Of a DNA stretch of 64,000 bases, positions 6,601 through 62,351 are shown piece by piece; position 1 is the first letter of the stretch; each line of letters opens with the position of its first letter. Source of the stretch: Rhizobium sp. Lineage in GTDB: Bacteria > Pseudomonadota > Alphaproteobacteria > Rhizobiales > Rhizobiaceae. The stretch lies in the NCBI RefSeq assembly GCF_036383055.1, contig NZ_DASVPC010000195.1; one strand, given 5' to 3'. Below the pieces are notes generated by a model. That model saw only the letters and a list, made by a program, of their open reading frames with translations, had not been told where the DNA came from and ran no database searches. Made by a program: the position numbers and the translations under genes.

Positions 6601-9600
6601 TCCAGGCCTGCGTCAGCTCGACCCCGAAGGCATCCGGATTACGGTAGCGATCGACCGCCTTGTCGACCTCTTCGCGGTTCGGCGCGGCGATCGTCCAGAA
6701 GATCACGCTGACTTTCTTGCCGGCCGGCACGCGCACGACGCGGCGCAGCGACAGGCAGGCATCCATGGTGAAGCCTTGCGTGCCCGAAAGCGTCGCGCCC
6801 GGATCGAAGGCGGCGGCTTCGGCAAGCGTGCGGCCACGGCCGAGGAACTTGCGGCGGTCCGTCTCGAATTCCGTCGGACGCTCCGAGCCGGCATTGTCGA
6901 CGACCAGATGCGCGATCGCCATGTCCGGCTCGTTATATTCGCGCTTGTTGCGCTCGGCACGAAGCACGTCGCCGCTGCTACCGACTTCGGTGCGAACGAA
7001 CATGCGTGCGAAGACCGGATGGCCGGAATCGACGTCGTCGCTGGCAATCGCCGGTTCGAGATAGGAGGTCACTTCGATGAAGCGGTCTTCCGACCCCATG
7101 TTGAGCAGCGTGACACGGCGGCCTTCGGCATCGTTTTCGGTGGCGACGATGCACTCGACCTCACTTGTGAAATCACCGATGGTCTTGCTGTATTCCGCCT
7201 TTTCGTCGCTGAAGGCGACCTTGACCTTTTCGCCTTCGATGCTGCGCGGCTCGGCAGTCGCCGACCACCACTGGCCGGATGCGGTATCGCGCAGGAAGAT
7301 GAAGGTGCCCCAGCGGTCTTCCGTCGGATCGGGCCGCCAGCGCGACACGGACAGGCCGTTCCAACGCGAATAGCCCGCGCCGGTCGCCGTCAGCATGACG
7401 GAGTAATGGCCGTTGGAGAGGAAGGCGAGTTCGCGATCCTGCGTGACCGGATCGGCGATCTTGCGGATCTCCGGACGCAGCATGTCTTCCTGGATATTGG
7501 CCGGCTGGTCGCTCTCGTGCTTGGCGGCCATGACCGGGATATCGCGCGGCGCCTTTTCCTGCAGCAGCAGTTCGGCCGCTTCGATCACCGGATCGGCGTG
7601 GAAGAGTTCGCGCAGACGGCCGTTGAAGGCGACGTTGGCAATAGCCGCAATCGACATGCCATGGTGGTGGGCATAGTAGTTGAAGACCACCGCGCATTTC
7701 TTGCCTTCGGGAACGCGGGTCGGCGTGAAGTCGACGGCATCATGGAAACCATAGATACCGAGAGCGCCGACCTTGCGCAGCTTCTGCAGGTTTTCAAGCG
7801 CCGCTTCCGGCCGGTACTGGCTGGCGAGGATGGAGGCATAGGGCGCGATGACGGCATTCTGGCCGAGGCCGCGCTTCAGGCCGAGCGAGGGCACACCGAA
7901 GTTGGTGTACTGATATTGCATCTGATGGTCGCGGGCGTTGAACGCCGCTTCCGAAATGCCCCAGGGGATGCCGGCGCCGAGACGCTTGGCATAGTTCATC
8001 TGCTCCTGGACGATCAGATTGTTGGTCTGGTTGAGAATACCGCCCTGACGCTCCTGCATGACGAGCGGCGGCATCAGATATTCGAACATCGAGCCGGACC
8101 AGGAGACCAGCGCACCGCGCGAGCCCACCGGCACGACCTGGCGACCGAGGCGATACCAATGCTCCGTCGGCAGGTCGCCCTTGGCGATGGCGAACAGGCT
8201 GGTGAGGCGGGCTTCCGACGCCAGCAAGTCGTAGCAGGCGGCATCGAGCTCGTTGGTTTCCACGCGGAAGCCGATGGAGAGCAGGCGCCGTTCCGGACGA
8301 TAGAGGAAGGCGAATTCCATGCCGAAGGCGGTTTCGCGCATGCGGTCGCGCAGCTTCGCCAGGCGCTGGCGCAATGCGTCGACATTGGCAAGATCGAAGA
8401 CGCTGTCGGCAATATGACCTTCGCAGACCTTCACCAGCGATTGCGACCAGGTGAGTACCTCGCCGCTCTGCGGCGATTTGACCTCGTGGTCGAGGTTGGC
8501 GGCAAGCTTCTGGATGTCATGCGCCAGAACCGAAAGGTTGATGATGCGGATCGAGGCGAACTCATGCTCGCGCTTGACCGCCGCCAGCGCGTTCTGGAAG
8601 CCGACGATACGCTCTTCCAGGCGATGACGCAGCGGGCGCACGGTCTTACGGTCATCCGGAAGCTCGGCGAGTATTTCGCCGAGGATGCCGGCGACATCGC
8701 CGACGCCGTCGAGATTGCCCTGCATATGCGCGGAAGGGGCTTCCGCCCAGATGCGGCAGGCAGAGGACACGGCAAGCAAGTGACCGGCGAAATTGCCGCT
8801 ATCGACCGCCGAGACATAGCGCGCGCCCATCGGCTTTAGCGTGTCCGTATGGTACCAGTTGCAGAGATGGCCACGGAATTTTTCGAGCTTCTCGACCGTC
8901 GCCATGGTCTTTTCCATGCGATCGATGGTTTCCTCGAAGGAAATCCAGCCGAAATGGCGGGCGGAGATGATCGAGAGCAGGTAGACGCCGATATTGGTCG
9001 GCGAGGTGCGCGAGGCCACGACCGGATGCGGCGTCTGCTGCACATTGTCCGGCGGCAGGTGGTTCTGCTGCTCGACCACGAAGGTGTCGAAATAGCGCCA
9101 GGTGCGCCGCGCGATCTTGCGCAGTTCCGACGAGACGCTTTCCGGTACTTCAAGCTTGTCTTCGGTTTCCGCCGACTGGCTGACATACCAGGCGATCGCC
9201 GGCGACAGGACCCAGAGCAGCGCAAAGGGAATGCCGACGAGGAAGGCATTGTCGCCCGACAGCGACGCGAAGGCGAGCGCCAGCAGGGCCAGCACCGGCG
9301 CATGCCACATGACGCGGTAGTGGCCGAGAATGGTGGTCTGCGCCGCGGCCTGGGCGCTGGCGGCGGTGCGCCATTGCAGCATCAGCTTGCGGCTGACGAA
9401 GGCGCGGTAGAGCGAACGGCCGATGGCGTCGGCCATGACGCAGGCGCTGTCGGCAATGAAGACGATGCGCAGCGCCACTTGCGCGTTGGCGGCGCGGATA
9501 TCCGTCCAGACCGTATAGAGATGGGCGCGGGCGATGATATCGCTGGTGCGCGGGATGATGCCGTTGATGAGCGACAGCGTCGGTGCCACGAACAGGCAGA

Positions 9601-12115: not shown

Positions 12116-12536
12116 GGATTCGGGTTCTGGGTCCAAACAGAGTGACAGGCATTATCGCCTTTGATGTCTTTGTCCTGCCTGACACAACCATTCACACATT
12201 TGGACCCTTTTGCTTCGCTTCCCGGCGCGCGAAGGGGGTGAATTGGAGGTGGCGGCTTAGAACAAACGATTCAGGCGAAGATTTTCATGGGCTCTTTTTC
12301 GGGATCATGGCGATTTCACGCCACCATTCGAAACAGGCTTCCCATGAAACTTGAGACGCCGCCGGATGGTTCCGACAGCAGTCCCGGTGTGTCAAAAACA
12401 ATCGATCAGGGTCACGAGGCATTCTCCTTGGGCTGACTTCTTGCAAACAGGAATCAGGGTATTTCAGACTGAGCCCTCCATATCCCGCGGAAGATGAACT
12501 TAAACTGAACTCCCTCAAAAGATTCGCAAATTCGTC

Positions 12537-48435: not shown

Positions 48436-50910
48436 CTACTTGGCACCTTGCGATACTGTACATAGTCCCACAATCTCGGTAGCCGCGAGTTTGTGATGTG
48501 AAAGCTGTTTGGCCGCCTCCGCTGGATCTTTGAATCCTCCGGACGTCGCAAGCGATATCGAATAGGCGCGCACCGCGTCCCTCAGCCTTTTCAGCCCCGC
48601 CGAGTTCACTATCCGAATGTCGCTATGGGGCGACGCCGCATGTTCGAAGACCGTCTTCGGATGCACCATGATTGGCGTCGCCGTGCATGACTTGTCGTAT
48701 TTTTCGCCGAACCATACGATCGAGCCGTTGAGCTGGTTGGCATCACCCTTCGATATCTTGTCTGCTTGGACCGCGCCACTCTTGCACTCGATAACAAGAT
48801 ATTTGAGGCCGCCCAGCGCCCAGAGATTGTCGGGGCCACGTCCTACCTCGTCTTCCGGACGCTGTGATCCGAACCCAAGGAATTTTCCGAGATCCTTCAT
48901 TGCAGCCTCGAAGCGCTTCGAACCTTCTTCTCCCCAGTCCAGATCGTCCAGAAGGCCGTTCACCCAGATGATTAGGTCGTTCCCCTCAAGGAACTTCCCC
49001 ATGTAGGCCACTGCGGCAGAGCTTTGGCCCGAGGGTGGCGCATTGAGTTTTGTGTAAGTCGCGCCTGCAATTGGCTTCAGAAGCCGAGAATTCAGACTCA
49101 GCGCAGACAATTGAAGTTCCTGGGCCTTAGCAGCATCGATGAAGTTCGTGATTTCAGCCAATTGCTGTTTAAGAAAGCCCTTTTCTTGGGGGTCAGTGGC
49201 GGAGTTAACAGCTTCTTGGGCCTTGTCGATCGCCAAATCATATCTGCTGATCCGGACCGCATCGAATGCTTCGCGCATCTTAACTTGATGACCATCGAGA
49301 TGGCCGCCTTCGATGGGAAGGGCATTCACCACAGCATTGCGTCCGGCCTGCACCCAGTCATCATTCTGCTCGAGGCAGAGATCCAATATTGGCTCAAGGT
49401 CTGCGAGCGACTTCCCGCGAACCTGCTCAGCAACTGCTTTTCCGAGCGTAATCTGCGCACGTGTAGCTGCAGAGAACATGTCTTCGGCTTCTGGCTGATG
49501 AAGTCGTTGTGTAAGCTTCCCACCTAATAGAAGCACGACGCAGTGATCATCACTCGATCGCACACCGCGGCCCATGCCCTGCTCGATCCTCTGGATTTGG
49601 CGGACAAGTTGCTTCCGGGTCCCGTCGAGCAACAGCATCTCCGATCGTTCCGAAAGACCGTAGACTTCCGGAAGTCCGTCAATGACCAGAAGTTCGCAAG
49701 CCTCGCCTGGCAAGTCGATGCCGTCATATTTGTTTATGAGTACAGACAGACCCACGTGACCGTTCTTAAGCTTCTCGACGCCTTGTTGGATGTTATCCTT
49801 GTCCAGGATTTGGTGTGCCACATCTTTCCAGAAGGATGCCCGGCTTTTTGAAGGAACGATGATGACCACGTTGAGGTCGTCCGCGATGCTAGACACCATC
49901 GCTTTGATTTCTTCGACTGTGTATTCAGGATTTATCTCTTGCGGAGCCAGAATCATCCGATCGCCGATATCGCCGCCGCCCTTCGGCCGGATAGGCTTCG
50001 CAATCTCTTTGGGATCGGCCTGGAAATGACTGACAAGGATTGTGTCATCAGCCAAAGTGGCGGTCATGTAGATTCGGCGCTGGGCAGAGGCGAAAGAGGG
50101 AATGCGATCGATCGGGAGAAACCGCGGAGCAATCTCGAGCCGACCTCCTCCGAAAATGCATGTGCATAGCGGAATCGCTTCGCTCAACAACGGCCAATTC
50201 CATTCGAGCTCCTTACCGTTCCTATTAGCGTGCAGGATTCCCAGAACATCGTCCTGATGTGCCTGCCACGCCCAGTAGGGAACCGTAAGGACGGCATTCG
50301 GATCTTCCGCCTTCACGTCAAGAAGGGTTGTCGGTGATTGCGCCTTAAGATCCTCTTCGAATAGCGCAAGGAGACCGTCATACACCGGGCTTCCGGCTTT
50401 GGACTTCAAGCAGAACTGGTCGTTTACGCTGCTGAGACTTGCATGGGCATCGTCTATCACGACTACTCCGATTGGGATCTTTCTTTCTCCGACGCCAAAG
50501 ACTGTCCGTCCATTGATCAGCTTGTGGATGTTAGCAACCAGAATCGATCTGCCCGCGAGAAAGTCCGGATCTTTTTCGTCGTCCGTTGCCGCAATTCCAA
50601 GATCGCTCGCCTCTGCGATAACCTGCGAGACCAGGAAGTTATCTGGGGTGATATATACCGCCGGCTTCACATTTTCATTGAGCGAGCTCTGTAGGGACAG
50701 CAGACCGACAACGGTCTTTCCCCCACCGGTGTTCATCTTTATCGTCAGATCCTTCGCCGCTCGTCTTTCAAACCAGGCGTCAAGAACATCGGCTTGCTCG
50801 TCCAATGGGCGCTTGAACCGAGCATGCCGTTTCAGGGTTGTGAAGATTTTCCTTGGGTCGATCTGCTTCGCTGTCGTGCCAGCGTTTAATATGCCGAAAT
50901 CTAATGACAT
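48436..50910 (-). CDS. SF2 (DinG/Rad3-like) helicase fused to a C-terminal PD-(D/E)xK-type nuclease; candidate single-gene defence protein (Hna-like architecture)
   Basis: Motif I MNTGGGKT, motif II VVVIDDAHA and a motif VI-like QGMGRGVRSSDDHCVVLLLG. The C-terminal approx. 170 aa carry GPDNLW...YLVIECKSG (D...ExK). Confidence 0.8.
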   Translation of the reverse strand: MSLDFGILNAGTTAKQIDPRKIFTTLKRHARFKRPLDEQADVLDAWFERRAAKDLTIKMNTGGGKTVVGLLSLQSSLNENVKPAVYITPDNFLVSQVIAEASDLGIAATDDEKDPDFLAGRSILVANIHKLINGRTVFGVGERKIPIGVVVIDDAHASLSSVNDQFCLKSKAGSPVYDGLLALFEEDLKAQSPTTLLDVKAEDPNAVLTVPYWAWQAHQDDVLGILHANRNGKELEWNWPLLSEAIPLCTCIFGGGRLEIAPRFLPIDRIPSFASAQRRIYMTATLADDTILVSHFQADPKEIAKPIRPKGGGDIGDRMILAPQEINPEYTVEEIKAMVSSIADDLNVVIIVPSKSRASFWKDVAHQILDKDNIQQGVEKLKNGHVGLSVLINKYDGIDLPGEACELLVIDGLPEVYGLSERSEMLLLDGTRKQLVRQIQRIEQGMGRGVRSSDDHCVVLLLGGKLTQRLHQPEAEDMFSAATRAQITLGKAVAEQVRGKSLADLEPILDLCLEQNDDWVQAGRNAVVNALPIEGGHLDGHQVKMREAFDAVRISRYDLAIDKAQEAVNSATDPQEKGFLKQQLAEITNFIDAAKAQELQLSALSLNSRLLKPIAGATYTKLNAPPSGQSSAAVAYMGKFLEGNDLIIWVNGLLDDLDWGEEGSKRFEAAMKDLGKFLGFGSQRPEDEVGRGPDNLWALGGLKYLVIECKSGAVQADKISKGDANQLNGSIVWFGEKYDKSCTATPIMVHPKTVFEHAASPHSDIRIVNSAGLKRLRDAVRAYSISLATSGGFKDPAEAAKQLSHHKLAATEIVGLCTVSQGAK

Positions 50911-51404
50911 TCGCCAGCCCCGCTCCCATACGCCTATACTTGCGCTTATTTCCTAGATAAACGAGTCTTTTAGTGTGACGAGAGCTGCTGAGCAACTGCA
51001 GCTTGAGGCAGGGGCCCAATGATTGGTTTGTTGTGAGGACGTCCGTTTCGCACCTTCGCGCCGGAAGTAGCACGTCCTCAGCGTGATCCAGAAAGCGGAC
51101 GTCGCGGGTGGGTCGATGTAGCGACATCTATGCGCCAATAGCTGCATCACATCGCCGTGAAGACACGCTGGAAGAGCGAGCCAACAGAGAAGCACTATCG
51201 CGAGACGATTATCTGGAAGCGACTTTTTGTATGTGCCCACCAATTAGCTGAAGAGAAGGTAGGTAGCTCCCCGCCGATCGCCTGGTGCCCGCGCCGTCTG
51301 CTTTCTCAAAGTAGTTCTGCTTCAGTCGAATCTGCAACCTAGACTATTGCGCTGATACAAAAACACAGGCAAACTTTCGTAATAGTTGGTTGGGGGGGAA
51401 TCGT

Positions 51405-51575
51405 ATGGATTTTGATTTCTGGAACTTCCTTGGCGGCTTGCTCACAGGCGCTGCCGGGGGCGCGCTACTGACGCTGCACTTCACCAAGACTATGCGAGCC
51501 GATCGCCATGGAAATACAACCGACCAATCCGGAGCGCGGGCTCGCGGAGACATCGTAGGCCGCGACAAGCGTTAA
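51405..51575 (+). CDS. 56-aa glycine-zipper transmembrane peptide with a C-terminal GN..Q..ARA.G.IVGRD motif
   Basis: MDFDFWNFLGGLLTGAAGGALLTLHF (one TM helix, G-x3-G repeats) followed by a polar tail. GGGGGGAA lies 5 nt upstream of the ATG. The track's TTG at 51390 was trimmed. Confidence 0.55.
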   Translation: MDFDFWNFLGGLLTGAAGGALLTLHFTKTMRADRHGNTTDQSGARARGDIVGRDKR

Positions 51576-51601
51576 CTTTCTGGAAGCACGCCATCATATC
51601 C

Positions 51602-52183
51602 ATGAACATTGCGACCCATCAGGGTAACGTCTCCAACCAGCAAAATGCACGCGCCGGCGGCCCCATCGTAGGCCGCGACTACTATAATGTCGAAGCCAAG
51701 AGGGGCTTGGTCGAGAAGCTGCTGCATAAGCTGAAAGAACAGTATGACTGCAACGAGCAGACGCAGACGACGATAGACGAACTCGCCCGATACCACACGC
51801 GGCGCGCGCCCGACGGCATTGACGGTCTTGAAGCCAAGTTCGAGGTCAGTGGGCGGTCCGCCTACTACGACGATGCGATCGAGAAAAAGGAGATGTTCGC
51901 GAAACTTCTTGAGAGATGGTCGCTGTACTCATCCGCCCAGGAAATCTTCGTCCACATCCTGGCCAAGGCCGAGAATGAGTTCACCCAGGTAATCTACGGC
52001 CAAATACCGAAGAAGGAACCCGAGGAAATCAACGCTATGGTCATCGACCGTATAGTAAATCCTATCGTTGAAGAATGCGGTGGCGATCTCATAGCCGTGA
52101 ACCACAACCTAGTTCAAGGAATGGTGTACTGGCTTGCTGAGCAATGCTTCATCAAATGGCATCACGGCTTGGTTGCGAGATGA
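51602..52183 (+). CDS. 193-aa helical protein: N-terminal copy of the IVGRD motif plus a C-terminal domain in the position of an ABC-3C/Lamassu effector-adaptor (LmuA slot)
   Basis: Residues 8-26 (GNVSNQQNARAGGPIVGRD) match the tail of the upstream peptide. The rest is helical and I see no enzymatic motif. Its stop codon overlaps the next gene's start (ATGA at 52180). Confidence 0.7.
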   Translation: MNIATHQGNVSNQQNARAGGPIVGRDYYNVEAKRGLVEKLLHKLKEQYDCNEQTQTTIDELARYHTRRAPDGIDGLEAKFEVSGRSAYYDDAIEKKEMFAKLLERWSLYSSAQEIFVHILAKAENEFTQVIYGQIPKKEPEEINAMVIDRIVNPIVEECGGDLIAVNHNLVQGMVYWLAEQCFIKWHHGLVAR

Positions 52184-52701
52184 CTCAGCTCACATATAAC
52201 GAGGCCTTCGACCCATATCATGCCGCCTTCCGGTTTCTTAGACTACATCTGGCGTGCGACGTAACCGCCAGAGTGCCCTTCGACACGATACGTATACTTG
52301 ATTTCTACCTGCTCTTCCCGTTCCGCCTTCAATCGATGAAGCTCTTCTCGCAAGACACGAGTTGGAGAAAGGTAAGCAAATCATATGAGGAACAAGCGCC
52401 GTATGGCGCGATGCCGGATGACAACATTGTCTTCTCTCGCATGGAACCCTTCCAGCGGGCTGCCGCTTCCAGTCTTGTGATCAGCGGTTACCTTGCGCCG
52501 AAGGCGTGGGATCAGAACGAAGTGCAGTTCACCAAGGAAGCGATCCCGGATGCGCTCAGACTTCGCTGTTCTGAACTGAACGCCCGGATGAGCGATGTGG
52601 TGGAAATCCTTTGTCAGATCAAGGCTCGGTATCCGCTCGGAGGCCGTGACGGGCTGAAGGATCGCACAGGTCTTCTGGAGTATCGATATGACCCGGTATG
52701 A
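52180..52701 (+). CDS. 173-aa protein in the 'middle component' position of an ABC three-component (LmuC-like) system
   Basis: MTQLTYNEAFDPYHAAFRFLRL...IRILDFYLLFPFRL. It is translationally coupled on both sides and small, with no enzymatic motif. The assignment rests on position and size only. Confidence 0.65.
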   Translation: MTQLTYNEAFDPYHAAFRFLRLHLACDVTARVPFDTIRILDFYLLFPFRLQSMKLFSQDTSWRKVSKSYEEQAPYGAMPDDNIVFSRMEPFQRAAASSLVISGYLAPKAWDQNEVQFTKEAIPDALRLRCSELNARMSDVVEILCQIKARYPLGGRDGLKDRTGLLEYRYDPV

Positions 52702-54619
52702 CCCCTCCCTCGTGGTCAAGCGCCTTGTCGTGAAGCGCGGCGCCTTCACGATGTATGATGAGGCCTTTCACACGGGCGTTAACGTGGTCAGAGGCGACAA
52801 CTCCTCTGGCAAGTCGACGATTATGAACTTCCTTTTCTTCGGTCTGGGAGGTGATCTCGACCGTTCGGCGTGGAGCGAACACGCCCTGCTGTGCGATCAT
52901 GTGTGGCTTGAGGTGGAGTTCAACGGCAACCCCGCGGTGCTGCGGCGGGAGATCGATGTCTCGTCCCAATCGGCGATGGAGATCTTCGGCGGACGCTATG
53001 AGCAAGCAGTCGTGGCCCCAATCGAAGCGTGGCACCGATATCCCTATGCCCGTTCAAGAAACCAGGAGAGCTTCTCACAAGCGATCTTCCGGCTCCTGGA
53101 GATGCCAGACGTTGCAGTTGAGGGCACGTCGAGCATCACCATCCACCAGATCCTGCGCCTTCTCTACGCAGATCAGCTTTCGCCGACAGAAAGCCTCTTC
53201 CGGTTTGAAGGGTTCGATTCTGAGAACCTGCGCGAGGCCGTGGGCAATCTCCTTTGCGGAGCGTTCGACACCGAGATATATGAGCTCCAGCAACTGAAGC
53301 GAACGAAGGAAAAGGAATTCACCGAAGCCAGCGCGGAGTTGAGGAGCATATTCAAGGTCGTCGGAGGTGGCGACGAGAGCATGACCCTTGACTGGATCGA
53401 GCAGCGCCGCAAAGGCCTTGTTCAGGAGCGCGACACGACCTCGGCTCAGCTTCTGGAGGCAGAAGAGGCGTTCTATTCCAGCCAATCCTCCGAAAAGATA
53501 ACGCTTCAGGTTCAGAAAGACCTCTACAAGCAGGTTCAGAAACTGCAGGGTGAGATCCGTCACAAGCAGGCCGAGGTGGATTCAGTTGAATTCGAAATCG
53601 CGGATTCGGCGGCGTTCATCCGAACCTTGTCCACACGACTGGAAGCATTGCGAGATGCGGATCTCACCGCGAGTGTCGTAGGCAGCGTCCGGTTCGGAAC
53701 CTGCCCGGCTTGCTACGCGGAGGTCGTTGAGCACGACCATGATGTCGAAGCTTGTCATCTATGCAAGACACCCCTCGACACCGGGCGTGCCCGTGAGCGA
53801 GTAGTCGGCATTATCAACGAGCTGTCGATACAGATAAAGCAGTCGGAGCGCCTGCAAACAATTAGGGCCGAGCGCCTGGAGAAGCATCAGGACTCCCTGA
53901 ATGCGCTGGTCGCGAACTGGCGGCTCAAGTCAAAGGAACTTTCCGATCTTAGCTCAGTACCGACATCCAAAGCTCGGGAGCAGATCCGAGAGTTGCAGCG
54001 GAAGCTTGGGTATATTGACAAATCCATTGAAGATGTCGAGGCGCAGGTCAAGCTCGCGAACAAGATCGGCCACCTATCCGCCCGCAAGGCGGAGCTCGAT
54101 CAGGAGATCCAATCGCTGGGTTCCCGCATTACCACGCTCCAACTCAGTCAGACCGATCGGTTGCGGACAGCCAAGAACAGCATTGAGAAAAACATCATCG
54201 AGATCCTCCAGGGCGATCTCAAGCGTCAGGACTCCTTCGAAAACCCCGAGCATGTTCAATTCTCGTTCGCGAAGAACTCCATCACGGTTGATGAGCACAC
54301 CTACTTCTCCGCAAGCTCCCGCGTTATTCTCAAGGCCGCATTCCTGGTGGGCTTCCTGAAGGCCGCCCTCTATGATCGACAATTCCGCCATCCCCGCTTT
54401 CTCATGATCGACATCACCGAGGACAAGGGTATCGAGCAGGCGCGAAGCCATAATTTCCAGAAGCAGGTAATCGAGATTTCGGACCAGGCGCCTGTCGAGC
54501 ACCAGATCATCATCGCGACGGCAATGCCGTGGCCCGAGATTGGGCCGCAGCTCTTTGTCGGCAGACATTCGACGCGACAGCAAGGCACACTCGCGTTTCT
54601 CACGAGCAACGGCAACTGA
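52688..54619 (+). CDS. SMC/Rad50-like ABC ATPase with a long coiled-coil insert (LmuB / ABC-3C ATPase-like)
   Basis: Walker A GDNSSGKST (52793-52819). A coiled-coil region of about 300 aa carries CPAC-x13-CHLC at its centre. The C-terminal lobe has a degenerate signature motif (FSASSR) and Walker B RFLMIDITED (54395-54424). Confidence 0.85.
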   Translation: MTRYDPSLVVKRLVVKRGAFTMYDEAFHTGVNVVRGDNSSGKSTIMNFLFFGLGGDLDRSAWSEHALLCDHVWLEVEFNGNPAVLRREIDVSSQSAMEIFGGRYEQAVVAPIEAWHRYPYARSRNQESFSQAIFRLLEMPDVAVEGTSSITIHQILRLLYADQLSPTESLFRFEGFDSENLREAVGNLLCGAFDTEIYELQQLKRTKEKEFTEASAELRSIFKVVGGGDESMTLDWIEQRRKGLVQERDTTSAQLLEAEEAFYSSQSSEKITLQVQKDLYKQVQKLQGEIRHKQAEVDSVEFEIADSAAFIRTLSTRLEALRDADLTASVVGSVRFGTCPACYAEVVEHDHDVEACHLCKTPLDTGRARERVVGIINELSIQIKQSERLQTIRAERLEKHQDSLNALVANWRLKSKELSDLSSVPTSKAREQIRELQRKLGYIDKSIEDVEAQVKLANKIGHLSARKAELDQEIQSLGSRITTLQLSQTDRLRTAKNSIEKNIIEILQGDLKRQDSFENPEHVQFSFAKNSITVDEHTYFSASSRVILKAAFLVGFLKAALYDRQFRHPRFLMIDITEDKGIEQARSHNFQKQVIEISDQAPVEHQIIIATAMPWPEIGPQLFVGRHSTRQQGTLAFLTSNGN

Positions 54620-54963: not shown

Positions 54964-55602
54964 ATGTTCGTGAACCAGAGTATACTCAACGGCCCTGCCC
55001 GTCCGGAGTTGATCGCTCCGGGAAAAACGAAAGATGACTGGCATGACTTCGCTAAGAAGCTGGTGCCCGGCGGCGATGAAGTTCTGTGGGCGGAAGCTTT
55101 CGAGAGCTTCCTGTCCGCCCGACTTCATAGCCGATACATCGATCCCATCGCAGCGGTACGAGACGGCTCCAAGTGGAAGGGGGAGGGCTTCACGATCGTA
55201 TCGATACAATGCGCGCTCATAGAATTCCTTGCGGCGCTCCGGGCGGGCAAGAATTTTCGCCATGAAAATCCTGTGCCGCCGCATGAATATAAGAATAGCA
55301 GCGGTCTCTTTTGCGACTTTCTGCGAAAGACTGATCCATTCGACAAGTTGTTCACGAAGCCGCAAGCCAAGGATTTCTACGCAAACGTCCGGTGCGGACT
55401 CCTGCACGAGGCAAGGACAAAGGGCGACTGGATCATATGGGCGAGCGGCACCCCAGCCGTGGATTGTCAGAGGAAGATCGTCTATCGCGACAGCTTTCAG
55501 GACCTCATCGAGGGGTACATCCAAGACTACGGTCGCGCGCTGCTGGAGGACATCCCCCTACAAAATGCCTTCGTCAGGAAGTTCAACGATCTGGCCGATT
55601 GA
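54964..55602 (+). CDS. 212-aa all-helical hypothetical protein with an R-x4-H motif (possible HEPN-like RNase)
   Basis: ...DFYANVRCGLLHEARTKGDW... (R-CGLL-H). No other family recognised. It starts 37 nt after the DUF3223 gene; AGGAG lies upstream, and the start is ATG 54964 or GTG 54970. Confidence 0.6.
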   Translation: MFVNQSILNGPARPELIAPGKTKDDWHDFAKKLVPGGDEVLWAEAFESFLSARLHSRYIDPIAAVRDGSKWKGEGFTIVSIQCALIEFLAALRAGKNFRHENPVPPHEYKNSSGLFCDFLRKTDPFDKLFTKPQAKDFYANVRCGLLHEARTKGDWIIWASGTPAVDCQRKIVYRDSFQDLIEGYIQDYGRALLEDIPLQNAFVRKFNDLAD

Positions 55603-55949: not shown

Positions 55950-58900
55950 TTGTCGGCAAATTTCGGTCATCTGCAGGAGGTCAGCCCAGAGCTCCATCGC
56001 CTCGGCACGCTGGCCGAGCGCTTCTTTGCCGAAGACGCAAATACATCGCTGATCAAGAGCCGCCAGTTCGGCGAGTACATGGTCAAGGAGATCGCGGCAC
56101 TTTCCGGCGTCTATGATCCCGCGGCGCGTGAGACCACGAATGATCTCCTCAGGCGGCTGGTGACACAGCAGGTCTTGCCGCGTGAAGTCGCCGACATCTT
56201 CCATGCCGTGCGCAAGAGTGGCAATGAGGCCGCTCATAACCTGGCGGGATCGCCCGAAGAAGCTTTGGCCGCGCTCAAGTTCTGCCGCGCGCTAGGAGTC
56301 TGGTATCGGCGCACTTACGGCCGCGATCCCAATTTCAGGCCAGGCCCGTTTGTACCCCCAAAGGCCTCTGCCGATATTGACCAGGCCACACGGGCAGAGC
56401 TCACGGCCCTGCGCGCCCAGGTTCTTGAAGCCCAGGATAAACTGGCCGCCGCCCATGCCTCGGCTGAGGAACTCGCCAAGGCCCGAGCTGCTGCCGAAGA
56501 GCTTGCCCGGCAGGCGGCAGCCGATAGCCAAGTGTGGGAACAGACTGCTGTCGAAATGGAGGCAAATCAGGCCGCGCTTTCGCGCAAGCTCGCGGAACTG
56601 CAGAAGGTGGCCGAAGCCCAGCCTGAGCAATTGCGGATGGAGTTCAAACAGGCCGGTATTCAGGCGGCGAGTCGGTTGGAACTCGACGAGCGCCAGACCC
56701 GCCGTCTGATCGACGTCCAGCTTGTCGATGCCGGCTGGGAGGCCGACAGTGACCGCCTGACCTACCAGAAGGGTGCTAGACCGGAAGAAGGCCGCAGCGT
56801 GGCCATCGCAGAATGGCCCTCCGAAGGTGGTCGGGCGGACTACGCACTTTTCGTCGGCCTCACCTGTCTCGGCGTCATCGAGGCGAAGCGCGAGAGCGTC
56901 GATGTGCCATCGATCCTGCAGCAAGCCGAACGCTACGCCCGCACGATTGTCTTGGCGCCGGAACAGACGTATCCGCATGGTCCATGGAAACATGGCTTGG
57001 ATGACCCCTTCCGCGTGCCCTTTGTCTTCGCCACGAACGGCCGACCCTATGTGCGCCAGTGGCTGACGAAATCCGGAATCTGGTACCGCGACGTGCGGCG
57101 GGAGACGAACCACGCCATTGCCATGACGAGCTGGTTCTCGCCGAAGGACCTGCTGGACAAGCTGGCCACGGATGTCGACACCGCCGCGCAAGGCCTCGCC
57201 GAAGAAAGCTTCGGCAAGGGCAAGATGCGCCCCTACCAGGAGGAGGCAATAGCGGCGCTCGAAGATGCCGTGGTGGCCGGCCAGCGCGACATCCTTATTT
57301 CCATGGCGACCGGCACCGGCAAGACGCGCACGGCGATTGCGCTCATGTATCGTCTCCTGAAGCACAAGCGCTTCCGCCGCATTCTCTTCCTGGTCGACCG
57401 CAAGGCGCTGGGACGGCAGACGAGCGATGCCTTGGAAACCACCGAAATCGAAGGCATGCTGAACTTCGCCCAGATCTACAAGGTGGCGGGGTTGGAGCAG
57501 AAGCTGCCGGAGGACGAGGATCAGGTGCAGGTCGCGACCGTTCAGTCGCTGATCGCCCGCATCCTGAACGAGCCTGACCCGGCCAAACGCCCGACGCCAG
57601 GTACCTTCGATTGCATCATCGTTGACGAAGCCCATCGCGGTTACACGCTCGATGCCGAGCTGCGTGAAAGCGACATCGGCTTCCGCAACATCGATGACTA
57701 CCAGTCTGCTTACCGCCAGATCCTCGATTACTTCGATGCCGTGAAGGTGGCGCTGACGGCGACACCCGCGCTGCATACCCGCGAGATCTTCGGCCATCCC
57801 GTCTTCCACTATGGCTACCGCCAAGCCGTCGTCGAGGGCTATCTCAACGATCACCTACCGCCAAAGCGTATCACGACGGCTCTGTCTGAAGCTGGCATTC
57901 ATTTCGTTGGCGGCGAGGAGGTCGAGATCATCGACCGCAAGACCGGACAGATCGATCTCTTCGAGCTTCCGGACGAAGTATCGCTCGATTACGATCTCGC
58001 CGACTTCAACAAGAGGGTTTATTCGGAAGCCTTCAACCGTATCGTCTGCCGAGCGATCGCCACCGAGATCTCGCCGTCGAAGCCCGGCAAGACGCTGATC
58101 TTCGCCGCCCGCGACGCCCATGCCGATGATATCGTGCGCCTGCTGATCGAGGAGCTGCAGGAGGAATACGGGAAAGAGGTTGTGCCGCATGGCATGGTCG
58201 TGAAGATCACCGGCAATGTCGAAAAGGCCGACGACCTGATCCTGAAATTCAAGAACGATCCCTATCCGAAATACGTCGTCACCGTGGATCTGCTGACCAC
58301 CGGCGTCGACATCCCCTCGATCTGCAATCTCGTCTTCGTGCGCCGGGTCAAGAGCCGTATCCTCTACGACCAGATGATCGGCCGCGCCACGCGGCTTTGC
58401 CCTGACATCGGCAAGGAGCATTTCCGCATCTTTGATGCGGTCGATCTCTATGCCGAGCTGCAGGAGATGACAGACATGCACCCGGTCATCGTCAAGCCGG
58501 ATATCTCTCTCGGTCAGCTCGTCACTGATCTGCGGACGGCAGAAACGGAAGAGGACAAGAGCTGGGTCGCTGGCCAGGTGATCGTGCGCATGCGGGCCAT
58601 GGTTAAGCGCATGGATGCCGAGAGCCGGGAAAGCTTCGAACGCCACACGGGCGAAAGTCCGGACATGGCCCTTCAGCGGCTTTCAACCCACTCCGGTACC
58701 GAGCTACAGAACTGGCTCGCCGCCTATCCACGCGCGGTCGAGCTGCTGGAGCGCCGCCCGCTGCGCGGTGACAAGAATGATGGCGTCGTCATCTCCACCC
58801 ATGAGGATGAGCTGCTGCGCATCGAAGAAATCTTTGGCAAGAACACGACGCCGGAGGATTACATCACCAGCTTCGAACGCTTCGTGCGCGAGAACATGAA

Positions 58901-59357
58901 CCAGGTGCCGGCTCTGATCGCTGTCACCCAGCGCCCGCGCGATCTGACCCGCAAGGAGATTTCGGAGCTGGCCGGCCTGCTCGACGAGAAGAATTATTCC
59001 GAAGCTATGCTGCGCGCCGCCTACGGCCGCGCCCGCAATGCCGATATCGCCGCCCATATCATCGGCTTCGTCCGACAGGCGGCTCTTGGTGATCCGCTGA
59101 TCCCCTATGCCACCCGCGTCGACAATGCGATTCTGAAGATCGAGGCCTCGCGGCCGTGGACGCAAAAGCAGAAGGAGTGGCTGCGCCGCATAGGCCGGGC
59201 GCTGAAGGACAAGCCGGTAGCCGACCCGACCCTGCTCGATCAGGGCGCCTTTGCTGACAAGGGCGGCTTCAAGCGCATCTCGCAGGAGTTTGATGGCGCG
59301 CTCGACGAGGTCCTGCACGCCTTTAACGAGGCAATCTGGACGCCACCCGCCGCCTGA
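55950..59357 (+). CDS. hsdR: Type I restriction enzyme R subunit with N-terminal DUF4145-like domain and coiled coil
   Basis: N-terminal ...FHAVRKSGNEAAHNL (DUF4145-type R..GN.AAH). An Ala/Glu-rich coiled coil follows. Nuclease motif ADYALF...VIEAKRE, helicase motifs MATGTGKTRTA and IIVDEAHRG, and a long C-terminal helical domain. The apparent start is a TTG. Confidence 0.9.
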   Translation: MSANFGHLQEVSPELHRLGTLAERFFAEDANTSLIKSRQFGEYMVKEIAALSGVYDPAARETTNDLLRRLVTQQVLPREVADIFHAVRKSGNEAAHNLAGSPEEALAALKFCRALGVWYRRTYGRDPNFRPGPFVPPKASADIDQATRAELTALRAQVLEAQDKLAAAHASAEELAKARAAAEELARQAAADSQVWEQTAVEMEANQAALSRKLAELQKVAEAQPEQLRMEFKQAGIQAASRLELDERQTRRLIDVQLVDAGWEADSDRLTYQKGARPEEGRSVAIAEWPSEGGRADYALFVGLTCLGVIEAKRESVDVPSILQQAERYARTIVLAPEQTYPHGPWKHGLDDPFRVPFVFATNGRPYVRQWLTKSGIWYRDVRRETNHAIAMTSWFSPKDLLDKLATDVDTAAQGLAEESFGKGKMRPYQEEAIAALEDAVVAGQRDILISMATGTGKTRTAIALMYRLLKHKRFRRILFLVDRKALGRQTSDALETTEIEGMLNFAQIYKVAGLEQKLPEDEDQVQVATVQSLIARILNEPDPAKRPTPGTFDCIIVDEAHRGYTLDAELRESDIGFRNIDDYQSAYRQILDYFDAVKVALTATPALHTREIFGHPVFHYGYRQAVVEGYLNDHLPPKRITTALSEAGIHFVGGEEVEIIDRKTGQIDLFELPDEVSLDYDLADFNKRVYSEAFNRIVCRAIATEISPSKPGKTLIFAARDAHADDIVRLLIEELQEEYGKEVVPHGMVVKITGNVEKADDLILKFKNDPYPKYVVTVDLLTTGVDIPSICNLVFVRRVKSRILYDQMIGRATRLCPDIGKEHFRIFDAVDLYAELQEMTDMHPVIVKPDISLGQLVTDLRTAETEEDKSWVAGQVIVRMRAMVKRMDAESRESFERHTGESPDMALQRLSTHSGTELQNWLAAYPRAVELLERRPLRGDKNDGVVISTHEDELLRIEEIFGKNTTPEDYITSFERFVRENMNQVPALIAVTQRPRDLTRKEISELAGLLDEKNYSEAMLRAAYGRARNADIAAHIIGFVRQAALGDPLIPYATRVDNAILKIEASRPWTQKQKEWLRRIGRALKDKPVADPTLLDQGAFADKGGFKRISQEFDGALDEVLHAFNEAIWTPPAA

Positions 59358-59436
59358 CGTTTCAGGCTGTCGTTGACCATCGGCCACCGCTCGCTACAAC
59401 CGCAATCACGATCCCGGATCAGATGAGAATCATGCC

Positions 59437-60978
59437 ATGAATGCCAATGCCATCGTCCAGAAACTCTGGCGCCTCTGCACGGTCCTGCGCAAGGACGGCA
59501 TCACCTACCAGCAATATGTCACCGAGCTGACCTATCTGCTTTTCCTGAAGATGATGGCCGAGCGCAACCGCGAGACCGGCAGTCTGCCCATGCCCAAGGG
59601 CATGCGCTGGGCGGATCTGGTCGCAGCCAACGGCCTGGCCAAGCTGGAGCATTATCGCAAGGTCCTGGTCACCCTTGGCGCCGCCAGCACCCGTCTCGGC
59701 AAGGACGACGCACTTGTGCTTCCGCCCGGCGAAAACGCCAGCCCGGAAGACCGGAAGCGCTATGCCGATGCCCGTCCGCTGCCGGAGATGGTGCAAAAGA
59801 TCTTCGACAATGCCTCGACCTTCCTGCGCGAGCCGCAGAACCTCACGACGCTGGTCACCGCCATCGACGAGCTCGACTGGTTCTCCGAAGAGCGCGACCA
59901 GTTCGGCGATCTCTATGAAGGTCTGCTGCAGAAGAACGCGGAAGAAACCAAGCGCGGCGCCGGGCAATACTTCACTCCCCGCGTGCTCATCGAGCTTCTG
60001 GTCCGCCTCATGCAGCCGAAGCCCGGCGAAGTCATCCAGGATCCGGCGGCCGGCACGGGCGGCTTCCTGATCGCTGCCGATCGCTACATGAAGGCGCGCA
60101 CCGACGACTATCTGGATCTCGGCGAGAAGGAACAAGAGTTCCAGAAGCGCCGCGCCATCCACGGCATGGAGAACGTGCCCGGCACGCTCCGCCTGCTGCT
60201 GATGAACCTTTATCTGCACGATATCGACGGCGATCATGTCGATCTTGGCGATACGCTCTCCGACAAGGGCAAGACCCTCGGCCGCGCCAACCTCATCCTC
60301 ACCAATCCGCCCTTCGGCCCGGCAGGTGGCGCGCCGACCCGCGACGACCTCTCGTTCACGGCCAGCGTCTCCTCCTACCAGCTTCCCTTTGTCGAACATT
60401 GCATTCGCGCGCTGCAGGCCGGTGGCCGCGCGGCCATCGTTGTGCCAGACAATGTGTTGTTCGAAGACGGGCGCGGCAAGGACTTGCGGCGGATGATGAT
60501 GGACTGGTGCGACCTGCACACCATCCTGCGCCTGCCGACTGGCATCTTTTATGCGCAAGGCGTCAAGACCAATGTCATCTTCCTGACACGCGGCAAGACC
60601 GAGACCGGCAACACCAAAGCCACCTGGATCTACGATCTGCGCGCCCAGATGCCGAAATTCGGCAAGACCACACCGCTGACTCAAGAGCATTTCGAAGGCT
60701 TTGAAAAGGCTTTTGGCTGGGACCCCTTCGGTAAGGAGCGCGGGCCGGATGAAGGCGAGGCCGGCCGCTGGCGGGAGTTCATGCGCGAGGGCATCGCCGC
60801 CCGCGGCGACAATCTCGATATCGTCTGGTTGCGCGAGACAGAGGAAGAGGCGGAAGAAGGCCTCATTGAACCCGACGACATCGCGGCCGCCATTCTCGGC
60901 CACCTGCAGGCTGCGACGCTGGAGATCGAGGCGCTGATGGCGGATCTGGGTGACGAGCTGCCAGAGGCGGCGGAATGA
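59437..60978 (+). CDS. hsdM: Type I restriction-modification system methyltransferase subunit (N6-adenine)
   Basis: HsdM N-terminal helical domain, SAM motif DPAAGTGGFL and catalytic LTNPPFG. Confidence 0.95.
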   Translation: MNANAIVQKLWRLCTVLRKDGITYQQYVTELTYLLFLKMMAERNRETGSLPMPKGMRWADLVAANGLAKLEHYRKVLVTLGAASTRLGKDDALVLPPGENASPEDRKRYADARPLPEMVQKIFDNASTFLREPQNLTTLVTAIDELDWFSEERDQFGDLYEGLLQKNAEETKRGAGQYFTPRVLIELLVRLMQPKPGEVIQDPAAGTGGFLIAADRYMKARTDDYLDLGEKEQEFQKRRAIHGMENVPGTLRLLLMNLYLHDIDGDHVDLGDTLSDKGKTLGRANLILTNPPFGPAGGAPTRDDLSFTASVSSYQLPFVEHCIRALQAGGRAAIVVPDNVLFEDGRGKDLRRMMMDWCDLHTILRLPTGIFYAQGVKTNVIFLTRGKTETGNTKATWIYDLRAQMPKFGKTTPLTQEHFEGFEKAFGWDPFGKERGPDEGEAGRWREFMREGIAARGDNLDIVWLRETEEEAEEGLIEPDDIAAAILGHLQAATLEIEALMADLGDELPEAAE

Positions 60979-62351
60979 GTGAGTTGCCGAGAGGGTGGGG
61001 AGAAGACGAAGCCTGGAATATCTGCGAGTTGGTGCAGAGTGGCGGTACACCAAAAGAGGGCTTCATTGACAAACCCGGAGTGCCGTTTTTGAAGGTGTAC
61101 AACATCGTTGATCAGAAGATTGACTTTGAGTACCGGCCCCAGTTCATCGACGTTGACATTCATCGCTCCTCAATGGCGAAGTCGCAGGCATATCCTGGCG
61201 ATGTTTTGATGAACATCGTAGGACCGCCACTTGGCAAGGTAGCTGTAATTCCAGACTCCTTCCCAACGTGGAACGTCAATCAAGCGTTGACGATTTTTCG
61301 GCCGAGTGAAGCCGTGACCTCCGAGTGGCTTTACTATTTCCTTTGCGGTGGCAACAGCGTGAAGAGTGTGATCAATGAGACGCGCGGTTCTGCGGGCCAA
61401 GTCAACATTTCGTTGTCGCAGTGCCGAGCCTTCAAGCTTCCGCTCCCACCCCTGGCCGAGCAAAAGCGCATCGTGGCTAAGCTGGATGCGCTGAACGCGA
61501 AATCCGCCCGCGCCCGCACCGAACTCGCCCGCATCGAAACCCTCGTCTCCCGCTACAAGCAGGCTGTGCTCAGCAAGGCGTTCAGCGGGGATCTGACGCG
61601 GGAGTGGCGGAAAGTTGCATCGACAGTTTGGCCGTGGCGCTCGGAGTTTTGGGGTGATTGTGGCGAGACCTTAAACGGGCGCGCATTCCCGAGCGGCGAC
61701 TACTGCGAGTCCGGGGTGAGGCTCTTGAGGCCCGGTAACCTTGGTGCATCAGGCGATGTTTTCTGGAATGAGAAGAACTCGCGGTTTCTACCTGACAAGT
61801 ACGCGGTCGAATTCCCAAAGCACTTCATCAAGGGCGAGGAGATACTTATTAATCTCACTGCTCAGAGCCTTGAGGACCAATTTTTGGCACGAGCTTGTCT
61901 TTCATCTGCGTCGGACGAGTTCATGTTGAACCAGCGAATTGGCTTATTTCGCCCTCGAAACATGATCCCCAAGTTCTGCCTATTCGCTCTCAAGAGTCCC
62001 CGCTTCCGGGGTTTTGTGGACAACGGAATGAACTCAGGCAGCCTGATTCAGCACGTTCATACAAAGCAGCTTGAACAGTACGAATTTGAAGTTCCAGATA
62101 TTGAAGAACAACACGAAATCGTCCGCCGTATCGAATCCGCCTTCGCCAAAATTGACCGGTTGGCTAAAGAGGCAGAGCGCGCGCTGGAGCTGGTGGGCCG
62201 GCTGGACGAAGCGATCCTGGCCAAAGCCTTCCGCGGCGAACTGGTTCGCCAGGATGAAAATGTCGAACCCGCCGAACACCTGCTTGCCCGCATCCGCGCC
62301 GAGCGCGAGACAGCACCGAAAACGAAGCGCGGGCGAAGAGCCCGCGCCTGA
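60975..62351 (+). CDS. hsdS: Type I restriction-modification system specificity subunit
   Basis: Two target-recognition domains separated by conserved helices (LPPLAEQKRIVAKLDAL ; EEQHEIVRRIESAFAKIDRL). The ATG overlaps the hsdM stop (ATGA). Confidence 0.9.
   Translation: MSELPRGWGEDEAWNICELVQSGGTPKEGFIDKPGVPFLKVYNIVDQKIDFEYRPQFIDVDIHRSSMAKSQAYPGDVLMNIVGPPLGKVAVIPDSFPTWNVNQALTIFRPSEAVTSEWLYYFLCGGNSVKSVINETRGSAGQVNISLSQCRAFKLPLPPLAEQKRIVAKLDALNAKSARARTELARIETLVSRYKQAVLSKAFSGDLTREWRKVASTVWPWRSEFWGDCGETLNGRAFPSGDYCESGVRLLRPGNLGASGDVFWNEKNSRFLPDKYAVEFPKHFIKGEEILINLTAQSLEDQFLARACLSSASDEFMLNQRIGLFRPRNMIPKFCLFALKSPRFRGFVDNGMNSGSLIQHVHTKQLEQYEFEVPDIEEQHEIVRRIESAFAKIDRLAKEAERALELVGRLDEAILAKAFRGELVRQDENVEPAEHLLARIRAERETAPKTKRGRRARA

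Follow-up and report, generated by a model that had tools for sequence, protein, structure and literature searches.

A small membrane peptide and the LmuA-like protein of a rhizobial short Lamassu operon carry a co-evolving motif pair

A 64,000-nucleotide (nt) stretch of DNA from Rhizobium sp. (contig NZ_DASVPC010000195.1, assembly GCF_036383055.1), hereafter the window, contains on its plus strand an operon in which the C-terminal tail of a small membrane peptide and the N-terminal head of the LmuA-like protein encoded next to it carry the same motif of about 19 residues. The peptide gene (51405..51575; ATG at 51405, stop codon at 51573-51575) encodes 56 amino acids, MDFDFWNFLGGLLTGAAGGALLTLHFTKTMRADRHGNTTDQSGARARGDIVGRDKR, and is proposed to be the effector and fourth gene of the system. 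A G-rich run that reads as Shine-Dalgarno-like, GGGGGGGA (51392..51399, plus strand), ends 5 nt before the ATG and presumably serves as such. After a gap of 26 nt follows the gene of the LmuA-like protein (51602..52183, ATG at 51602; 193 amino acids), which starts with MNIATHQGNVSNQQNARAGGPIVGRDYYN and consists of the N-terminal motif, a flexible and helical linker and a CTD9 domain (residues 75-186, 51824..52159; Pfam PF20285, E=1.2e-33), the only domain matched in the protein. An effector domain fused to LmuA was not found, as no domain was matched by Pfam before residue 75. The third gene, as listed, encodes an LmuC-like MC5 middle component of 185 amino acids (52144..52701), matched over its full length by Pfam PF20291 (E=5.7e-56). 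The listed open reading frame (ORF) includes the last 40 nt of the CTD9 gene, and the Pfam match begins at residue 16; translation may really start at a later ATG, at 52180, which overlaps the CTD9 stop as ATGA, with translational coupling. The fourth gene in order (52688..54619), whose start overlaps the MC5 end by 14 nt, encodes an LmuB-like SMC/Rad50-type ABC ATPase of 643 amino acids (PADLOC LmuB PDLC03862, E=9e-46, residues 5-609), with a Walker A motif, GDNSSGKS, at 52793-52816 and two zinc-hook-like CxxC motifs at 53702-53713 and 53753-53764. Weak matches were also obtained to AAA_23 and SMC_N in Pfam and, over residues 196-501, to Rad50/SMC families in NCBIfam. The ABC-3C class and its CTD9 and MC5 components were reportedly defined by Krishnan et al. 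in 2020. As judged from its three defining components, LmuB, MC5 and CTD9, the operon is a four-gene short Lamassu (ABC-3C) system, ABC-3C being the Lamassu superfamily (PMC10586767). PADLOC 2.0 recognises only LmuB here, since no LmuA or LmuC model matches this clade, and the CTD9 and MC5 proteins match PHROGs families of unknown function.

The peptide has three recognisable parts. A hydrophobic, glycine-zipper-like helix, FLGGLLTGAAGGALLTL (residues 8-24, 51426..51476, plus strand), is flanked by acidic residues on its N side and basic residues on its C side. It has a mean Kyte-Doolittle hydropathy of about 1.6-1.7, and its Hessa sum of about +1.5 kcal/mol is marginal for spontaneous insertion. 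Five glycines fall within about 17 residues in the pattern G11-x3-G15-x2-G18-G19, of which G11, G15 and G18 are invariant. The flank charges, -1 on the N side and +2 on the C side, fit an orientation with the N terminus outside and the C terminus inside, which is probably the one adopted. An AlphaFold2 (AF2) model of the peptide predicts a helix over residues 5-35, with block means of the predicted local distance difference test (pLDDT) of 94-97 for residues 1-20 and 86 for residues 21-30, and leaves the tail without reliable structure. This tail, G36-K55 (51510..51569, plus strand), holds the motif, which spans G36-D54 (51510-51566) and reads GNTTDQSGARARGDIVGRD. Searches of Pfam, PADLOC, NCBIfam and PHROGs assigned the peptide to no family. 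None of its 44 listed homologues, which are 53-90 amino acids long, has a Pfam domain, and those named by their source are called hypothetical protein.

The second copy of the motif, GNVSNQQNARAGGPIVGRD, lies at G8-D26 of the LmuA-like protein (51623..51679, plus strand), after seven residues. Tail and head are identical at 12 of 19 positions (G,N,Q,A,R,A,G,I,V,G,R,D). A sequence-only reading of the window had placed both motifs correctly, as a re-reading of the sequence confirmed, and had counted 11 shared positions, one too few. In the AF2 model of the LmuA-like protein, residues 1-35 are coil (pLDDT <50 for residues 1-11 and 21-33, mean about 51 for residues 11-20) and the remainder is helical, the overall model being poor (pLDDT 58.7). 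A search of the window in six frames with a regular expression found no third copy of the motif; loci elsewhere have two copies each.

Genomes were scanned with a CTD9 alignment, which gave 58 loci in alpha- and gamma-proteobacteria, or 59 with a plasmid locus; labels from L003 to L077 denote the homologous loci compared with the window. The order peptide-CTD9-MC5-ABC is kept with fixed spacing in nearly all of the 59 loci (tblastn), MC5 is syntenic in all of them, and nearly all have an ORF of 52-70 codons that ends 10-40 nt upstream of the CTD9 gene. The peptide-less or broken exceptions are L036, L037 and L033, which are decayed, and L056, which shows no peptide. In L036 (2724-4378) a transposase-like ORF splits the CTD9 gene after the N-terminal motif and linker, in L037 (3794-3990) an in-frame TAA lies between peptide helix and tail, the result of pseudogene formation or of an error in a metagenome-assembled genome, and L033 is a remnant with only a CTD9 fragment left. 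In IMG/VR, a back-translated scan for GDIVGRDK found three contigs and no others; each of them carries the same system. The plasmid collection gave one match, on a 1.58-Mb replicon of Ensifer adhaerens (L059, NZ_CP030264.1 1257976-1258143). This is the closest relative in the annotated collections, with 89% identity in the peptide and 95% in the CTD9 protein. Nothing is annotated where the peptide match lies, but the PLSDB gene table has just a single entry for the entire record.

The LmuA-like family itself is larger, with 398 close homologues and, from an exhaustive profile search, 570 representatives at 50% identity, nearly all of 183-200 amino acids. The N termini of the CTD9 representatives listed carry the motif or variants of it, such as GGHQAGRDVN, GRDQIG, GDLAGRDI and GDVAAGNI. 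No fusion of a transmembrane (TM) segment to CTD9 was found among 120 listed close homologues or among 150 listed of the 570 representatives. A few longer CTD9 proteins (230-258 amino acids) have N-terminal extensions that are of low complexity and not TM, and one of them, in L072, keeps its own upstream peptide. Peptide gene and motif pair stand at nearly every intact locus among the 59. The sequence-only reading had considered that a tandem partial duplication split an ancestral TM-effector/adaptor fusion into two ORFs. This proposal finds no footing here, as no fused form was seen among the listed homologues, the split is ancient and general, and DNA outside the window bears no trace of duplication or conversion.

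Across the family the layout of the peptide is constant: a short acidic and aromatic N terminus, a helix of the form FLGGLxxGxxGGxLLTF, a basic TKNxR flank, a linker of G, S and T, and the tail motif, with the consensus x-x-[VT]-D-Q-S-x-A-x-A-G-G-D-[IV]-V-G-R-D-K. Most loci have a single copy of the motif in the peptide. In pairwise comparisons of the peptide gene, codon differences at positions 1, 2 and 3 were 0.41, 0.31 and 0.68, and inside the motif 0.29, 0.21 and 0.65. Such a codon-position pattern marks a translated gene that is under purifying selection.

At the DNA level the two motifs of the window share an exact 16-nt string, CATCGTAGGCCGCGAC, at 51551..51566 (the third base of D49 followed by the codons of I-V-G-R-D) and again in the head motif at 51664..51679, both on the plus strand. 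As the sequence-only reading had stated, the identity is exact; the string occurs exactly twice in the 64-kb window, with no further match even when two mismatches are allowed. The expected count is 0.11, and two or more matches were found in 0 of 100 shuffles. The string is part of a longer direct repeat of 33 nt (79% identity, spacing 113 nt). The weight that had been placed on this core is not borne out by the other loci. Over 49 loci, the longest stretch of identical in-register nucleotides in tail and head is 6 nt at the median and 16 nt, the value of the window, at most; runs of at least 16 nt occur in 0.4% of between-locus comparisons. The identity is peculiar to the window, being due either to chance agreement of the codons chosen for five identical residues or to a local micro-conversion, and is no feature of the system. 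At the protein level, conservation throughout the family places the repeat far outside what chance would give.

These data bear on whether the small ORF encodes a protein partner at all. It could be a leader, an upstream ORF or an ORF that arose by chance, and its role regulatory; its resemblance to the head would then stem from local duplication or conversion of DNA. The 16 identical nt in the window would fit this, as would the fact that the peptide is unannotated in some records, such as that of the Ensifer adhaerens plasmid, whose table holds one feature in all. Such an origin is hardly credible given that the amino acid sequence is kept over deep divergence while third positions are free, and that the architecture of helix, basic flank and motif is conserved. 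Moreover, there is no excess of codon identity within loci, where the 16-nt run is the extreme of 49, and no fused, ancestor-like form was seen among the listed homologues. Codon identity at identical residues was 0.375 within loci vs 0.383 between loci, and in L027 tail and head share 16 of 19 residues but only four identical codons. On these two figures, and because the 16-nt run is confined to the window, gene conversion and recent duplication were rejected as the origin of the similarity. Because synonymous codons are not common to the partners, selection in the motif pairing is judged to act on the protein, not on the DNA.

Co-evolution of tail and head was measured on in-register 19-mers, the spacing from Q5 to G16 being fixed. 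Over the first 49 loci a tail shared on average 11.1 of 19 residues with its own partner vs 10.3 with shuffled partners, a value reached in 0 of 20,000 permutations. In a non-redundant set of 39 loci the difference widened to 10.9 of 19 vs 9.0 (z=8.3; 0 of 100,000 permutations), and a non-consensus residue in the peptide was matched by the partner in 53 of 144 cases vs 17.6 expected. Individual loci illustrate the pattern. The peptide and head of L048 read GRDNAGGNI and ARDNAAGNI, those of L050 SNVGRDQIGG and SNVGQNQIGG; in L051 an otherwise invariant Q is replaced by M in both partners, and in L013 both carry AGNK. The derived states are distinct in different lineages and therefore represent independent events.

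A further test made use of 12 distant metagenomic CTD9 proteins, chosen only for their odd N termini, whose contigs were then inspected. In all 12 loci a small gene lies directly upstream and its tail matches the odd head, in L075 only moderately. The peptide of L063 ends with SGHQAGRDVNVK at its stop codon and the head reads GGHQAGRDVNIY, with SGHQAGRDVN in the former and GGHQAGRDVN in the latter. The corresponding pairs are VGGNQAGRDVNI and VGGHQAGRDVNI in L064, GGDMAGRDI and KGDLAGRDL in L065, AGGDVAGGNINK (again up to the stop) and AGGDVAAGNIYK in L066, and QRDISAGNDFVGRD and QKDIHTGRDFIGGD in L071, where both partners show DI...DF. Tails also match heads in L072, L077 and L070, the last with an indel of two residues. 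When 18 diverse loci were compared all-vs-all by Smith-Waterman alignment, the top match of 16 of the 18 heads was the peptide of the same locus.

In several loci the motif is iterated. L053 carries GDKIGGDKVGGNKV, and two units are found in L065, L068 and L077. In L068 (268-549; L069 is alike) a peptide of 93 amino acids has a canonical-like tail unit, VVNQERARAGRDFTGRDN, and a second one, VVGRDQIQGSQIRVNS. The head of this locus, INRDQILGSQYNI, has no canonical motif and matches the second unit only, in the segment VGRDQIQGSQIRV.

The partners vary at the same positions and to the same residues, as predicted by parallel in-register pairing and not by a complementary interface. This weighs on a second explanation, that of a stoichiometric tether or an antitoxin-like sequestration, by which the motifs would pair 1:1 as a small beta-sheet or hairpin with no templating. 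The peptide would then either be docked on the Lamassu complex or be a toxic peptide kept inactive until LmuA is released or remodelled. In its favour, small hydrophobic peptides, such as type I toxins and holins, are often toxic alone. The explanation fits the same synteny and co-evolution data, most loci have a single motif copy per peptide, and the conserved charged residues would suit a defined soluble interface. Identity-type covariation nevertheless favours like-with-like pairing over a complementary interface, the iterated units of L053, L065, L068 and L077 suggest stacking repeats, and solved Lamassu systems are activated by oligomerisation of the effector, not by release of an inhibitor. 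A 1:1 tether or sequestration is considered unlikely.

Two of the distant loci depart further from the rule. In L067 (1019-1189 / 1201-1800) the peptide is inverted, with the motif N-terminal and the hydrophobic helix C-terminal, so that it resembles a tail-anchored protein, MFDKNISRSINVQSNSGVVVGDNNGNININKPKKYWLAKVLISILSLIGIIINFFN. The CTD9 head starts with MVFDKSISSEIIVPNNIGSVVGVNKGIIDNH; both motifs are N-terminal and non-canonical, and about 17 of 30 residues are identical. In L074 a wholly different type of motif (SxSDSSLxTNV) is found on both partners, GGSVSDSSLSTNV and AGSISDSSITTNV. The upstream partner of this locus (2-298 / 308-913) has at least 98 residues, as it runs into the contig end, and its visible part has no hydrophobic helix; its tail reads GGSVSDSSLSTNVSE up to the stop and the head of the CTD9 protein AGSISDSSITTNVDAS. 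This partner is possibly a different effector.

The same two loci count in judging a third explanation, in which tail and head have no contact with each other but compete for one pocket, which MC5, LmuB or CTD9 might provide, one motif being a pseudo-ligand or autoinhibitor and both tracking the specificity of the pocket. Two ligands that follow one receptor would likewise give identity-type covariation, and MC5 and LmuB co-diverge with the motif classes, the four genes being co-inherited. However, no candidate pocket was identified. The motif of L067 sits at the opposite end of the peptide and still matches the partner along about 30 residues, for which direct pairing is the easier account, and the L074-type motif replaces both partners at once, which would require simultaneous redesign of a third protein. 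A shared receptor is therefore regarded as improbable.

The interpretation preferred here, direct homotypic pairing, builds on direct observations: which genes make up the operon, that the peptide is conserved as a coding gene, that the motifs lie in the same register, and that as protein sequences they co-evolve by residue identity. In solved Lamassu complexes a monomeric LmuA is held by its C-terminal domain (CTD) between two LmuB protomers and LmuC, and the sensing of DNA ends frees LmuA, whose CTD tetramer activates the fused nuclease (Li et al. 2025, 10.1101/2025.03.14.643221; Haudiquet et al. 2025, 10.1101/2025.04.02.646746). By analogy with the LmuA CTD structures described there, CTD9 is presumed to be a docking and oligomerisation domain. 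At rest, it would be held by LmuB2-LmuC as in those complexes. Detection of foreign DNA ends or of replication intermediates by LmuB would free the LmuA-like protein and let it oligomerise via its CTD, as suggested by other Lamassu systems. Oligomerisation would cluster four flexible N-terminal motifs, which could form a nucleus, for which a parallel in-register beta-type arrangement is the favoured physical mode. The nucleus would recruit or template peptide tails of identical register, in a manner like the amyloid signalling of Bab/Agp or NWD2/HET-S, and the clustered glycine-zipper helices would produce a membrane lesion, so that the infected cell dies and the infection is aborted.

It is held to be somewhat more likely than not that the peptide is the separate effector of a short Lamassu system, its tails being recruited or templated by LmuA-like oligomers through in-register homotypic pairing. 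The killing component missing from a Lamassu clade that was thought to be effector-less is probably this peptide. The narrower proposal, that a Lamassu system with an SMC-family sensor signals by prion-like or amyloid templating, through an uncatalogued motif family (DQSxAxAGGDIVGRDK and variants), onto a membrane-permeabilising peptide of 56 residues, is put forward only tentatively.

Several points weigh against homotypic templating. The motif is short, and its conserved charges, D13, R17, D18 and K19, are unusual for amyloid cores; the amyloid core of HET-s, on the other hand, has salt bridges. AF2 monomer models show no beta structure and give coil or helix of low confidence for the motif, which matches no Pfam amyloid-motif family in either protein, and identity-type covariation would also be expected if both motifs bound one common receptor. 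The homology of CTD9 to the solved LmuA CTDs is taken only from the Pfam ABC-3C classification. A Foldseek comparison of CTD9 with the PDB, made with the poor model (pLDDT 58.7), gave no match at E<1, and profile and sequence searches of the PDB found nothing for CTD9 or for LmuB.

Compared with described systems, the operon shares with short Lamassu/ABC-3C systems (LmuA-LmuC-LmuB; DdmABC) an SMC/Rad50-like LmuB with CxxC hooks, a middle component and a CTD-bearing component in one operon, as well as the setting in a defence island. It is assumed by analogy that here, too, activation proceeds by the CTD-bearing subunit being freed and oligomerising. The effectors described for Lamassu are fused enzymes, namely Cap4, Mrr, Sir2, protease, lipase, HNH and FMO (10.1101/2025.04.02.646746). 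In contrast, the LmuA-like protein here has a motif of about 19 residues and a linker in place of an enzymatic N-terminal domain, and a conserved fourth gene encodes a membrane peptide. Haudiquet et al. (2025) noted that their short-Lamassu clade O had "seemingly lost the effector domain" and mentioned no peptide (10.1101/2025.04.02.646746); the CTD9 family described here is plausibly that clade. Neither a Lamassu membrane peptide nor the motif pair was found described in the literature searched, a prior mention in Krishnan et al. 2020 being possible.

Of the systems compared, amyloid signalling pairs come nearest in function to the proposed coupling. In the Bab/Agp system of E. coli, BASS11 is found at the C terminus of a small membrane-targeting killer and at the N terminus of the adjacent sensor, and beta-breakers abolish defence (Ibarlosa et al. 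2024, 10.1101/2024.11.07.622273); Bell-domain proteins and NLRs form pairs through BASS1-10 (Dyrka et al. 2020, 10.1101/2020.01.06.895854). Shared with such pairs (Bab/Agp, Bell/NLR, HET-S/NWD2) are the layout as a gene pair, a motif at the effector end and the partner's N terminus, similarity within the pair, a hydrophobic N-terminal helix, the defence-island setting and, as proposed, the logic of abortive infection. Unlike in these pairs, the partner is the 193-residue CTD9 adaptor of an SMC-type DNA sensor, not an NLR/STAND or TPR sensor, and the peptide has no globular Bell, HeLo or Bab domain, only helix, linker and motif. The motif, DQSxAxAGGDIVGRDK, also differs in sequence, has conserved charges and belongs to no Pfam amyloid family, and amyloid formation is only putative.

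The effector-associated domains (EADs) of NTPase conflict systems, reportedly described by Kaur, Burroughs, Iyer and Aravind in 2020, have a Death-like helical fold, measure roughly 80-100 residues and are present on a sensor-side protein and on a separately encoded effector. The sequence-only reading had likened the motif to EADs, as a homotypic adaptor that links the membrane peptide to the ATPase operon. The logic, common to the sensor side and a separate effector, is supported by synteny and by position-by-position co-evolution. The likeness in kind does not hold, as the element here is a G/N/Q/D-rich peptide of about 19 residues, modelled by AF2 as low-confidence coil, with no match to a Pfam EAD. 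The short, Gly-rich hydrophobic helix with its basic cytoplasmic flank further recalls type I toxins, holins and VacA-type GxxxGxxxG pore formers. Unlike these small membrane toxins, the peptide has a conserved recognition tail matched to a partner, and it has no match in catalogued families.

The neighbouring genes bear on a putative role of the system against phages or plasmids. Divergent from the operon is the gene of a DEAD/ResIII helicase-like protein of 824 amino acids (48436-50910, minus strand), a PDC-S28 candidate with a full-length PADLOC match of 1065 bits. On the other side lies a type I restriction-modification (R-M) system (55950-62351, plus strand), which consists of hsdR (1135 amino acids, with an N-terminal DUF4145 and a PDC-M16A-like region), hsdM (59437-60978) and hsdS (60975-62351). 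The Lamassu-like operon, the PDC-S28 gene and the R-M system form a defence island beside rml (rhamnose) and glycosyltransferase/polysaccharide genes at 40.8-47.7 kb, in a chromosome of rhizobial type. An ORF of 212 codons at 54964-55602 (plus strand) lies 345 nt past the end of LmuB and was assigned to no family by Pfam, PADLOC, NCBIfam or PHROGs. It was rejected as a fifth component, since just four close relatives (L003, L004, L008 and L012) have it downstream of the system. Farther away, the domains of an ORF of 2843 codons (3605-12136, minus strand), namely GH94 supersandwich, GH94 catalytic and glucoamylase, suggest a cyclic beta-1,2-glucan synthase of the NdvB/ChvB type, which fits a rhizobial host. 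Long plus-strand ORFs that overlap it have no Pfam match and are probably spurious.

The arrangement may be described as Lamassu plus an effector coupling like that of amyloid signalling, each known in kind, and the case for it is built on clean natural co-variation. Lamassu systems are present in roughly 10-15% of prokaryotic genomes (PMC10586767; 10.1101/2025.04.02.646746). With PADLOC 2.0 recognising only LmuB, standard annotation would report an incomplete Lamassu here and miss the peptide. Lamassu of the effector-less type gains a concrete candidate effector, a separate membrane peptide coupled to LmuA by a co-evolving short motif. The peptide would define a minimal killer made of helix and motif, and the natural motif variants would be ready material for specificity swaps. 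Should the coupling prove amyloid-like, amyloid signalling would extend from NLR-type receptors to SMC-type DNA sensors. If the templating reading is true, the peptide would be the smallest known executioner under amyloid control, the system would be the first case of amyloid signalling outside NLR/TPR sensors, and the missing effector of the 'effector-less' Lamassu clade would have been supplied.

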